Origin: a phage
Strand: one strand, 5' to 3'
Sequence record: PZ379075.1
DNA: 64,000 bases
Shown here one piece after another: positions 11,094-13,605 of the stretch. The notes below the pieces were generated by a model. That model saw nothing but the letters and a program-made list of their open reading frames with translations, did not search any database and had not been told where the DNA came from. Position 1 is the first letter of the stretch. Each line of letters starts with the position of its first letter. The position numbers and the translations under genes are program-made.

Positions 11094-11273
11094 GGTTATT
11101 ATGTTCAAGTGGTTTAAACGTTTCTTCCATCTCCATGATTGGGAGACAATAAAAGAAGTTCGTTTACACATATATAATGAGATTGGTCAAATAGAAGACA
11201 CAGGTACTCGTTATATACTTCGATGTAAAACATGTGGTCATATCACCAAGCGAGATATGATCTAAATAATTCT

Positions 11274-11349
11274 GCGCTCTTAGCTCAATGGATAGAGCAG
11301 TAGCCTTCTAAGCTATTGGTTACAGGTTCGAGTCCTGTAGGGCGCACCA
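11274..11349 (+). tRNA. tRNA-Arg (anticodon TCT)
   Basis: Hand-folded cloverleaf: acceptor GCGCTCT/AGGGCGC, D-stem GCTC/GAGC, anticodon loop CTTCTAA with TCT at 11307-11309, T-arm ACAGG-TTCGAGT-CCTGT, discriminator A, encoded CCA. Confidence 0.85.
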
Positions 11350-11489
11350 CATTTAGGGCTAGTATGGGTGCGGCACCAGAGTTAGTGTATCCCTGTTGAG
11401 GCAAGTGCTTTTATAACAGTGGGAATTACTTTCTTAGTGAGCTTCTGGTTCGATTCCAGATAGTCCACCAAATCTAATAGGAGGTAATT

Positions 11490-11789
11490 ATGAGTTGGGG
11501 TGGTGTAATATCCTTAATCTGTATCTTCCTTGTCTGCATAGCCCTTACAGGCTGCGTACAGAGCCGTCCTGATGGATGGTGTGCAGTAGCAGTGGAAGGT
11601 GTTTGTGTTTCTCGCTGGTATAAGGGTGAGAAGATTCCTTCTGGTGAAATTGATATGCGATGGAACGGAGCAACCTGTTCTAATGCTAACCCTTCTATCA
11701 ACGAAGAGAAGTCTACGCCAGACAATGTTGTGATTGATACAGCGTTGTGGTGTGGTGGCTCTGTAACAACAACCGGTAAGGAGTGGTGA
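11490..11789 (+). CDS. putative Cys-rich lipoprotein (99 aa)
   Basis: Signal peptide with lipobox LTGC (ICIFLVCIALTGCVQ); overlapping minus ORF 11474-11827 considered spurious. Confidence 0.5.
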   Translation: MSWGGVISLICIFLVCIALTGCVQSRPDGWCAVAVEGVCVSRWYKGEKIPSGEIDMRWNGATCSNANPSINEEKSTPDNVVIDTALWCGGSVTTTGKEW

Positions 11790-11790
11790 T

Positions 11791-11988
11791 ATGAATTACA
11801 CATCCACAAAGGTGTTAATTGATTCAATTAATAGCTCCTCAGAAGCTGTACAGGAGCGTTTAATACAAGATGTTAGCAATGACATTAAGTTCTTTGTTAA
11901 GAGCCGCCTGTTAGGTTCTAAGGCTTATTACAGAGCTAAAGCAGAGCTTACAAAGAGGGTGTTTCTTTTACATGGTTTGGTATATTAA
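11791..11988 (+). CDS. hypothetical small protein (65 aa)
   Basis: ORF from track. Confidence 0.35.
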   Translation: MNYTSTKVLIDSINSSSEAVQERLIQDVSNDIKFFVKSRLLGSKAYYRAKAELTKRVFLLHGLVY

Positions 11989-11997
11989 GGAACTTAT

Positions 11998-12219
11998 ATG
12001 AAACTAGACTCTAAGCAGTCACTTAAAACCGTTGAGCTGTCCACGCTGCCAAACGGAAGTATTTTTGGTCATGATAAACACTTCTGGATTAAAACAGACA
12101 TCATAGACGATGGATATATCACCTGTGTCAATCTTTGGAACGGTTCAGTGGATGGTTATCGCCCTAGCGCAAAGGTAGTCCCTCAGCCTGATGCTAAGGC
12201 TGTAGGTTTAGTTTACTAA
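11998..12219 (+). CDS. small paralogous-family protein (member 7)
   Basis: Motif NGSIFGHD. Confidence 0.5.
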   Translation: MKLDSKQSLKTVELSTLPNGSIFGHDKHFWIKTDIIDDGYITCVNLWNGSVDGYRPSAKVVPQPDAKAVGLVY

Positions 12220-12370
12220 GGAGTTCATATGAGCTGTTATGGTGGCGGTGAAGTGTGTGATGACGACGACATGGAATCCAATGGTACATGCCCTGACTGT
12301 GGGTGTGAGACATTTGATGGAGTGTCAGTATACCCTGCCTGTAGTTACTCACCAGTGATCTGTAAAACAT

Positions 12371-12628
12371 GTGGAGATCAACCTTGTGACCAGTCTTGTT
12401 AGTATGTTAATAGCCTATCTGATAGGATCAGTAGTATCAGGTGTTCTGATTAAGATTATAGATGTTAAAGGTAATCAGTGTTTCAGAGGTTGGGATGGTG
12501 AGCCAGACCTCGGAAAGATAGCAGCTATGGTTTTCTTGTGGCCTATTATTGCTGTACTATTTATAGCACTCGTATCATGGGCTGCTCTTTGGGATTTCAT
12601 CCTTCCTAACAAAAAGTATGAGGACTAA
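12371..12628 (+). CDS. small membrane protein with two predicted TM helices
   Basis: Hydrophobic segments LVSMLIAYLIGSVVSGVLI and AAMVFLWPIIAVLFIALVSWAAL; real start may be internal. Confidence 0.45.
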   Translation: MEINLVTSLVSMLIAYLIGSVVSGVLIKIIDVKGNQCFRGWDGEPDLGKIAAMVFLWPIIAVLFIALVSWAALWDFILPNKKYED

Positions 12629-12629
12629 T

Positions 12630-13293
12630 GACTGAAGAATTTTTAAAGTGGTTTGGTGATACCTTCAAAGAGTATCTATTCTCTCCAGAAGACTTTGAAG
12701 AACTGAAAACCTACACTTGGTTGGCTTGGAGAGATAGCCGACGAGAGATGAATAAGTAATATCGTGAAGGATTCTTACGAGAGTCCTTTGAGATAGGACT
12801 TCAGATCTCCTATCAAACTAACATTCATGTAACTAGCCCATAAGGGCGTTACCCTTTAATAACCCAGCCCACTAAGGGGGCGGGAGTTTAGTGCTGGATT
12901 AGCATAACGCTTATTCCTACAAAGGCAACCGATTGTTAGGTCTTACATGCAATATTAATTAATAGGATAAGGGAGGATTCGTCCCCTCCCCCTATTCATA
13001 AACTATTAGGAGAGTACATTAGCTGATTAGCTGTGGAAGGTAGGCCGATATCTACAGCGTGGCCCAGAGCTAGTGTACTCCCCAATAACTTTAGGGTAAA
13101 TGTGGAACAACCTTTTAATTACAGGTATAGCTTATGGGACTCAGTAATGCAGAGTCTACGGTAAAGCAGTCGCCCGTGGTCGAATGACCGTATGCCCATT
13201 GGATGCATTCCTTTGGTGATGGCTAGGGAGTCCGAGCGTAGGTTCGAATCCTACACCTGTAACCAAATTGAATAATAGCTAATTGGAGGATGT
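12630..13293 (+). other. ORF-poor structured region with a tRNA-like 3' module (T-arm GTAGG-TTCGAAT-CCTAC, acceptor, CCA ending at 13265)
   Basis: Canonical T-loop and CCA at 13238-13265 but no clean 76-90 nt cloverleaf found; several hairpins (e.g. GGGAGG...CCTCCC at about 12971-12995). Confidence 0.3.
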
Positions 13294-13605
13294 ATGAAAG
13301 CACGAAGAACTATATGGACTCCGATGCAGATTGAAAATCTTCGGAGACTAATCAAAGAGTACTCGGTTCAAGAAGTTGCTCAGATTATGAATGTAACGGA
13401 GAATGCAGTTAACGCAGCTTGTACTAAATTCGGAATATCAAGAGCTTCAATCCGAGTTAAATGGTCTGAAGAAGAAGACCAGTTCCTTATCCGTAATGCT
13501 GGGTTCATGTCTATTCAGAGAATGGCTGACATGCTCGGTAGAAGTTATGCTGCTGTACAGAACAGAGCATGTATGCACCTTAACATTAGCCTCAAACTTA
13601 AATAG
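13294..13605 (+). CDS. putative helix-turn-helix DNA-binding protein (103 aa)
   Basis: Two HTH-like segments (VQEVAQIMNVTENAVNAA and SIQRMADMLGRSYAAVQNRA). Confidence 0.45.
   Translation: MKARRTIWTPMQIENLRRLIKEYSVQEVAQIMNVTENAVNAACTKFGISRASIRVKWSEEEDQFLIRNAGFMSIQRMADMLGRSYAAVQNRACMHLNISLKLK

Follow-up and report, generated by a model that had tools for sequence, protein, structure and literature searches.

A conserved 146-nucleotide tRNA-like RNA gene in the early region of a kuravirus, a candidate tRNA-scaffolded small RNA

Anatomy of a tRNA-like element in a kuravirus noncoding gap

We analyzed a window of 64,000 nucleotides (nt) of phage DNA (sequence record PZ379075.1), in which a structured noncoding region with a tRNA-like 3' module had been proposed at positions 12630-13293 from the letters alone (hereafter, the original prediction). 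The subject of this report is a 146-nt tRNA-like RNA gene in this region, which we call element 2 (13120-13265, + strand). The region matches Shigella phage ShigP1 (genus Kuravirus, phiEco32-like) at 100% identity and many E. coli kuraviruses at 94-99%, and it lies among clustered small early genes that are all encoded on the + strand. The proposed noncoding region holds for 12760-13293, whereas positions 12630-12759 are coding and belong to a conserved, annotated open reading frame (ORF) of 43 amino acids (12628-12759). Element 2 starts 36 nt after a long hairpin (hairpin C) of a separate structured RNA (12757-13083), and ends 28 nt before the ATG (13294) of a D5-like regulator gene. It lies 1.8 kb downstream of the single tRNA gene found in the whole window by default ARAGORN and by Rfam, a genuine tRNA-Arg(UCU) at 11274-11349 on the + strand, with an encoded CCA (72.4 bits with the Rfam tRNA model). 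Six nt past the CCA of this tRNA begins a second, 115-nt tRNA-like RNA gene, element 1 (11356-11470, + strand). No promoter or terminator was predicted on the + strand between 12600 and 13300, and the RNAs of the locus are therefore probably parts of an early polycistronic transcript.

The outer parts of element 2 are those of a tRNA, and can be read directly in the sequence as the original prediction described them. The 5' acceptor strand TACAGGT (13120-13126) pairs at all seven positions, by Watson-Crick pairs, with ACCTGTA (13255-13261), which sets the length of the unit at 146 nt. The canonical T-arm GUAGG-UUCGAAU-CCUAC (13238-13254) is kept in all copies, and the discriminator A73 (13262) is followed by an encoded CCA (13263-13265). 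Between these parts lies a core of several hairpins, seen in the RNAalifold consensus: hairpin 1 (13137-13157), with a 6-bp stem and a 9-nt loop of the form A-N-UAAUGCA; two short hairpins, ACGG..CCGU (13158-13177) and GGUC-GAAU-GACC (13178-13189); hairpin 3 (13191-13221), with the apical loop UGCAU; and a small hairpin (13222-13237) that abuts the T-arm on its 5' side, where a variable arm would be. We scanned both strands of the window with a regular expression describing a 5-bp T-stem, a TTYRANN loop, 7 nt, any nucleotide and CCA. It matched only at element 2 and at the true tRNA-Arg, while shuffled windows contained 0.06 motifs each. The combination of T-arm, acceptor, A73 and CCA is thus far beyond chance.

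Element 2 is not a decoding tRNA. It shares with canonical and class II tRNAs the 7-bp acceptor stem, the 5-bp T-stem with its UUCGAAU loop, the discriminator, the CCA end and the spacing within tRNA arrays, but it differs from them in its length (146 nt, compared with 70-95 nt) and in the absence of a D-arm and of a 5-bp/7-nt anticodon arm. These two arms are missing from the covariation-supported fold, which has the hairpin with a 9-nt loop instead. Consistently with the statement that no clean tRNA is found here, default ARAGORN made no call at 13120-13265, and the Rfam tRNA model (RF00005) had no match there at its gathering threshold or even at E<=10.

Fold, distribution and mobility of element 2

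The fold was evaluated on nine copies of element 2 representing seven distinct sequences. Comparative data were preferred over single-sequence minimum free energy (MFE) folds, because the latter scored just weakly better than shuffled sequences (z = -1.6 for element 2 and -2.0 for element 1). Standard pairs make up 98.8% of the pair cells of the consensus. Compensatory double changes were found in three pairs: 6:67 in the acceptor stem (G-C in kuraviruses and A-U in the genus Efbeekayvirus), 20:36 in hairpin 1 (A-U or G-C), and 84:90 in hairpin 3 (A-U, and G-C in phage XT32). When the pairing partner was slid by one to three columns as a control, zero or one compensatory pairs were obtained, compared with the three observed. 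Pair 18:38 of hairpin 1 is G-U or A-U. In the two hairpins at 13158-13189, changes are confined to wobble-compatible or loop positions, and covariation support is weak. The predicted pairs of the hairpin at 13222-13237 are all invariant and lend it no covariation support; its sole variable base is an A/U at element position 116, in an internal loop. The T-loop of XT32 carries C in place of U55. Overall, the comparative structural support for element 2 is real but thin.

The loops of hairpins 1 and 3 contain the complementary sequences AUGCA and UGCAU, and could form a kissing interaction of 5 bp. These bases are invariant in all copies; since the pairs never vary, the interaction is suggested by complementarity alone. 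We also observed two hypervariable sites among copies that are otherwise 93-100% identical, 13144 and 13159 (element positions 25 and 40). Position 25, in the loop of hairpin 1, is G, C, U or A; position 40, which pairs with G57 in the stem of the next hairpin, is C, U or A. Two small overlapping ORFs (13033-13164 and 13192-13275) were set aside, as the substitutions are pair-compensating and not codon-like. A role at the DNA level, as an attachment site or an origin, was set aside as well, given that the T-loop, the ACCA and a covariation tolerant of G-U pairs all lie on the + strand.

A BLAST search of element 2 against 50,697 phage records found the element at full length in 11 kuravirus records (91-100% identity), out of roughly 142 kuravirus-like records. 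Phages SU10, NJ01, phiEco32 and most other kuraviruses are cleanly without it. Outside this group, a 146-nt unit of 95% identity (92-96%) was found in the Klebsiella phages GADU21 and HS106, which belong to the Schitoviridae (genus Efbeekayvirus, N4-like). There it takes the place of a tRNA in an array with the order Asn, Asp, Pro, Tyr, element 2, Ser, Gln, Ser: 3 nt separate it from the CCA of tRNA-Tyr and 6 nt from tRNA-Ser, the same spacing as between the real tRNAs. The flanks of this copy are unrelated to the window, and the similarity spans from about 3 nt before base 1 to about 4 nt past the CCA. A scan of IMG/VR with 16-mers gave 31 loci, one of them genuine: a contig with a 95% identical 146-nt unit, likewise between tRNA-Tyr and tRNA-Ser. 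In a metagenome scan, copies were found on three kuravirus contigs. No match was obtained by blastn in 5,426 complete E. coli genomes, and the exact core motif of element 2 was absent from 185,579 prokaryotic genomes; with both scans negative, a host origin or a host target of the sequence was set aside. Neither the phage records nor these two sets of genomes provided an intact tRNA ancestor. Since few homologues were found, the family is narrow and the power of covariation is limited. The sequence comparison indicates that element 2 is a discrete mobile cassette that was transferred between phage families.

A second family of elements has the same outer parts around a different interior. In Gamaleyavirus (PhAPEC5, PhAPEC7 and PBM-3) and in Klebsiella phage KP8 we found a 124-nt element, which we call type b, element 2 and its homologues being type a. 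The two types have in common only U1-A72, A2-U71, A73, CCA and the T-arm GGTTCGAATCC. The acceptor strands of type b (TACCAGT/ACTGGTA, TATCAGT/ACTGATA and TACTGGT/ACCAGTA) are all fully complementary, and so are both pairs of type a strands (TACAGGT/ACCTGTA and TACAGAT/ATCTGTA). It is the shell that is conserved, and the core is exchangeable.

A proposed tRNA-scaffolded RNA and its rival explanations

Stable tRNA-like RNAs in phage tRNA clusters have stood unexplained since the sequencing of species 1 and 2 of phage T4 in the 1970s. The function of these RNAs, RNA C (species 1, rnaC) and RNA D (species 2, rnaD), is still unknown (PMC3014915, PMC9697503). RNA C (139 nt) and RNA D (119 nt) lie in a tRNA cluster directly after tRNA-Arg(UCU). 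RNA C is the closest analogue of element 2: its fold has a closing stem, two arms unlike those of a tRNA, and a canonical T-arm (GGGUUCGAAUCCC), a plan shared with element 2 and with type b. Element 2 shows the anatomy of the class, in which lengths are about 120-140 nt: a slot in a tRNA array (in GADU21 and HS106), a T-arm, a terminal closing stem and a non-tRNA core. Unlike element 2, with its perfect 7-bp stem and encoded CCA, RNA C has an imperfect closing stem and no encoded CCA; element 2 also has more and shorter internal hairpins, and is a cassette common to unrelated phage families. Homology to rnaC or rnaD was not apparent, as the BLAST search of the phage records gave only matches of T-arm length outside the family of element 2, and a comparison by eye showed no sequence similarity to T4 past the T-loop. 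We regard element 2 as a further instance of the T4-type tRNA-cluster RNAs, a known but unexplained kind, and as a second, independent family in which a tRNA shell surrounds a foreign core. No description of element 2 or of the structured RNA upstream of it was found in Rfam 15 or in the searchable literature.

The original prediction had listed a tRNA-like RNA among its possibilities, and this part of it is supported by the conservation of the element, its exact tRNA-like ends, its tRNA slot in other phages and its compensatory base pairs. We consider it reasonably probable that element 2 is the gene for a 146-nt, tRNA-scaffolded stable small RNA. The tRNA parts that it keeps, an acceptor stem stacked on the T-arm with A73 and CCA, are those read by the host maturation machinery (RNase P, 3' exonucleases and the CCA enzyme), with some 110 nt of its own hairpins in place of the D-arm and the anticodon arm. 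The early polycistronic transcript would pass through the 12757-13083 RNA and element 2; RNase P would cut at U13120, and 3' trimming would halt at the encoded CCA, freeing a stable RNA with the shape of a tRNA. The same cuts would detach the 12757-13083 RNA from the D5-like regulator mRNA. It is the core, foreign to tRNA, that would carry any specific activity; its most plausible role is that of a decoy or a binding partner of a host tRNA or translation factor. The cassettes may be exchanged among phages at the short "CCA-AAU" spacers of tRNA arrays.

Several observations weigh against this reading. The evidence for element 2 comes from sequence and comparison. The covariation derives from seven distinct sequences of close relatives in which most pairs are invariant, and the single-sequence fold is only weakly better than shuffles, as given above. 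Damaging changes are seen in some copies: XT32 carries an A-G mismatch, and two metagenomic copies have a C-A mismatch together with a change of CCA to UCA. Within kuraviruses, element 2 is not more conserved than the genes that flank it: the identity of XT32 is 92.6% in element 2 and 94.7% over the locus. Most kuraviruses do without the element, which makes it dispensable. Finally, U1-A72 is an unusual start for a substrate of E. coli RNase P.

Two rival explanations accept the anatomy and dispute its meaning. Element 2 could be a decaying pseudogene derived from a tRNA, or a selfish cassette hitch-hiking through recombination in tRNA arrays, in either case without a function for the phage, whether or not it is transcribed. 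We judge this unlikely, although the patchy spread of the element, which is limited to some kuravirus-like records, the two genomes of Efbeekayvirus and a few contigs from metagenomes and IMG/VR, agrees with it, as do the stem mismatches or lost CCA of some copies and the visible shuffling of neighboring modules between phages; the 95% identity between families also points to a recent transfer, in which little selection has been sampled. What speaks for maintenance is that three independent compensatory double substitutions occurred within just 17 variable columns, that the ends are exactly those of a tRNA, and that type b, unrelated in sequence, keeps the shell with covarying acceptors. The lack of any intact tRNA ancestor among the phage records, E. 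coli and the 185,579 prokaryotic genomes also argues against decay, and a degenerate tRNA, one of the options of the original prediction, is unlikely. The other explanation is a purely cis-acting processing signal, a form of tRNA punctuation, which would recruit RNase P and 3' processing in order to delimit the upstream structured RNA at its 3' end and the D5-like regulator mRNA at its 5' end, with the tRNA-like piece released as a by-product. There are parallels in mascRNA (MALAT1) and in the tRNA-like structures of plant viruses, where a tRNA-like fold lies 3' of a longer structured RNA and can recruit RNase P and the CCA-adding enzyme, but those RNAs come from eukaryotes or RNA viruses and are not homologous to element 2. 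The position of element 2 between hairpin C and the ATG at 13294 fits such a signal, and so does that of element 1, which follows tRNA-Arg and ends 19 nt before the ATG (11490) of the next ORF; the failure to predict an internal promoter or terminator fits it as well. Yet a plain tRNA or an acceptor-T minihelix would be enough for this purpose, leaving the conserved 110-nt core with its covarying hairpins unexplained. Moreover, the Efbeekayvirus copy lies between two tRNAs, where additional punctuation is unneeded, and kuraviruses without element 2 express the same downstream gene. On balance, we find this explanation decidedly unlikely.

Two further explanations would give element 2 a place in translation. 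The original prediction had considered a tRNA with an insertion or intron, and ARAGORN with its intron option (-i) does place, at the default threshold, a tRNA-Val(tac) exactly on 13120-13265; with its 49-nt intron removed, this would be spliced to a 97-nt class-II-like tRNA-Val(UAC). However, this call is specific to the copy in the window: the FH3 copy is called as tRNA-Arg cct with a 62-nt intron, and the copies of XT32, GADU21, HS106 and the IMG/VR contig are not called at all. It was also made, with the same ends, for 47 of 500 controls (9.4%) in which the interior was shuffled and the ends were kept. The third base of the predicted anticodon is C, U or A among copies of 93-97% identity, the predicted D-stem is almost unpaired, and the predicted anticodon stem takes the 3' strand of hairpin 1, whose pairing has compensatory support. 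The proposed insert is just 49 nt long, and at E<=10 Rfam recognized neither a group I nor any other intron family. Bacteria are not known to have a tRNA splicing endonuclease. An intron-bearing tRNA is therefore scarcely credible. The remaining explanation is a tRNA-like partner in a phage system of the trans-translation type, in which the acceptor domain would work with a tag template like that of transfer-messenger RNA (tmRNA). Gamaleyavirus and KP8 do have, in this order, a homologue of hairpin C, a tag frame and a type b element, and a phage tmRNA reduced to the tRNA-like domain (TLD), the "TLD-only" tmRNA of mycobacteriophage DS6A, is known; such molecules can titrate tRNA- or tmRNA-binding proteins (PMC4131195). 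Element 2 resembles the TLD of tmRNA and the DS6A RNA in being phage-encoded, in keeping the acceptor and the T-arm, and in having lost the anticodon arm. It does not have their G3-U70: its acceptor has C3-G70, unlike the acceptors of tmRNA and alanine tRNAs. The tag segment of the relatives has no homologue anywhere in the window, and the tmRNA models of Rfam had no match in 11200-13400. ARAGORN in relaxed, mitochondrial and tmRNA modes was also tried, and its relaxed calls were scattered and mutually inconsistent. Reading the window itself as encoding a tmRNA was thus rejected, for want of a tag segment and of G3-U70 in element 2. The tag RNAs of siphoviruses and Ackermannviridae, in turn, have no adjoining tRNA-like element. 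We consider a trans-translation partner very improbable.

A broader proposal, which we put forward tentatively and regard as doubtful, is that element 2, element 1 and the upstream RNA are modules of an undescribed, horizontally shuffled "RNA island" of enterobacterial phages, whose tRNA-shaped parts actively mimic tRNA. Such an island may range over Kuravirus and Schitoviridae, and pieces of it would occur in Ackermannviridae and in two siphoviruses, VLCpiS13b and Sf11. It may comprise tRNA-shaped and tmRNA-like parts and, in relatives, also a tag template missed by annotation and by default predictors. If this were true, the mimics of the island would engage aminoacyl-tRNA synthetases, EF-Tu, SmpB, RNase P or tRNA-targeting defence nucleases, and would not be inert leftovers. 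The function of element 2 is experimentally tractable, since near-identical E. coli phages are natural presence/absence variants and there are signs of a recent transfer of the cassette between podovirus families. The "noncoding gap" of kuraviruses thus turns out to hold conserved structured RNA, overlooked by current annotation and by Rfam.

Element 1, the upstream RNA and related modules in other phages

Element 1 had been described as an orphan T-arm with a partial CCA at 11443-11470. This proved incomplete: the sequence has a full ACCA, and its 5' partner GGGCUA lies at 11356-11361, giving a unit of 115 nt. The acceptor GGGCUA/UAGUCC forms 6 bp (G1-C72, G2-C71, G3-U70, C4-G69, U5-A68 and A6-U67), and the T-arm UCUGG-UUCGAUU-CCAGA precedes A73 and CCA. 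Across Kuravirus, Suseptimavirus and Nieuwekanaalvirus just three positions are variable, and the homology is bounded by G1 and the CCA. In phage TH42, element 1 follows a different tRNA, and in ev_rybdy3 it is absent. G1-C72, G2-C71, G3-U70 and A73 together make up the established identity set for alanine, known from AlaRS and acceptor minihelices and also used by tmRNA. Since its acceptor carries this set, element 1 is predicted to be charged with alanine. Despite the G3-U70 pair, no tmRNA model matches it; the TLD-only tmRNA of DS6A offers a possible functional analogy. We also noted a motif, GYGGC(A)CCAGAGYUAGUGUAYYCC, common at 20 of 24 nt to element 1 (11374-11397) and to the 3' strand of hairpin C (13058-13083). 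In PBM-3, the relaxed mode of ARAGORN takes the hairpin C copy of this motif as the 5' tRNA domain of a tmRNA.

The RNA upstream of element 2 (12757-13083, about 330 nt) is a separate locus, which the original prediction had not distinguished from the tRNA-like module; it shows strong covariation and is more widely conserved, being found in 158 phage records. Its first 240 nt are present in almost all kuraviruses and hairpin C in a subset of them, the identity to Gamaleyavirus is 82-84%, and the RNA has its homologue within a larger noncoding RNA island of N4-like phages. Positions 12757-12957 (+ strand) form a closed multi-helix domain, whose closing helix UAAUAU/AUAUUA pairs 12757-12762 with 12952-12957. 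In an RNAalifold consensus of 10 phages, 9 of the 42 pairs of this domain are compensatory, including pairs of the closing helix (CUAUAU/AUAUAG in Gamaleyavirus) and of a hairpin at 12792-12814. The stop codon TAA of ORF 12628-12759 falls within the covarying closing helix (12757-12762), so that termination and folding overlap. A G+C-rich hairpin, GGGAGG-AUUCGUCC-CCUCCC (12971-12990, + strand), is nearly invariant in Kuravirus and Gamaleyavirus; it has no U-tract, and the terminator scan gave no call for it. Hairpin C (13009-13083, + strand), a long hairpin that was also detected as an inverted repeat, has a conserved internal loop (GAUUA / CGUGGCCCAG) and a conserved apical loop (AAGGUAGGCCGAU), and 8 of its 25 pairs are compensatory across 9 phages, including Gamaleyavirus and KP8. 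No Rfam family matches 12757-13083 or the related loci of the relatives. ROOL and GOLLD are large, ornate multi-helix RNAs that occur in phages and prophages next to tRNA or tRNA-like genes; the likeness of the 12757-13083 RNA to them was assessed through the Rfam covariance models alone, which had no match in the window or in related loci. The RNA described here is smaller, and likewise adjoins a tRNA-like gene.

In some kuraviruses, hairpin C and element 2 are separated by an additional module of about 145 nt (FH3, locus L007 720-865; XT32, locus L008 ~1354-1500). A homologous module precedes a 66-67 nt tRNA-like gene annotated as "tRNA-OTHER" in PhAPEC5 and KP8 (L041 ~990-1050 and L042 ~1320-1386). 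Hence, RNA modules are shuffled between phages. In Gamaleyavirus and KP8, 1.5-1.7 kb between the gp46-like and gp48-like genes are without convincing genes (PhAPEC7 locus L048 1200-2790, and L041, L042 and L049). This stretch contains tRNA-like units of 66, 124 and about 115 nt, minihelices made of a hairpin plus ACCA, and other conserved modules; only one to four of its units are recognized as tRNAs.

The tag frame of Gamaleyavirus and KP8 lies directly after the hairpin C homologue and before the type b element. It is tmRNA-like, comprises 10 codons plus a stop, follows AUAAAU-GCAAACGA, and encodes ANEEAYLMVA or ANDDVVLMAA. The tag module was also found, behind a sigma-70-like promoter, in two siphoviruses, VLCpiS13b and Sf11 (Cedarrivervirus), and in Menlow, a phage of the Ackermannviridae; its conserved leader has the form ..GCGAYUWUGCGG..UUUUUAGAAAC..ACCA..AUAAAU, followed by GCA AAC GA. 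The loci are PhAPEC7 L048 1726-1817, KP8 L042 940-1029, PBM-3 L049 1650-1736, VLCpiS13b L057 690-783, Menlow L058 ~700-775 and Sf11 L059 ~690-785. Default ARAGORN made no call on these modules. Its relaxed tmRNA models in the relatives were inconsistent regarding the tRNA-like domain and were distrusted, the tag frame alone being robust, and no convincing alanine-type acceptor or tRNA-like domain was found beside the modules. The Rfam permuted-tmRNA model scores them at 25-33 bits (threshold 47), and RF04321 is sub-threshold. A scan of bacterial genomes with an 18-mer of the tag leader gave 75 matches in unrelated phyla, against our own estimate of about 140 expected by chance, and thus carries no information. 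Among phages, the tag module matches 300 records (Schitoviridae, Ackermannviridae and several siphovirus groups), none of them annotated. The tags ANEEAYLMVA, ANDDVVLMAA, ANEEVYLAVA and ANDNTFLAVA may be compared with the E. coli tag ANDENYALAA, and the differences between tag frames are at third positions or conservative, that is, codon-like.

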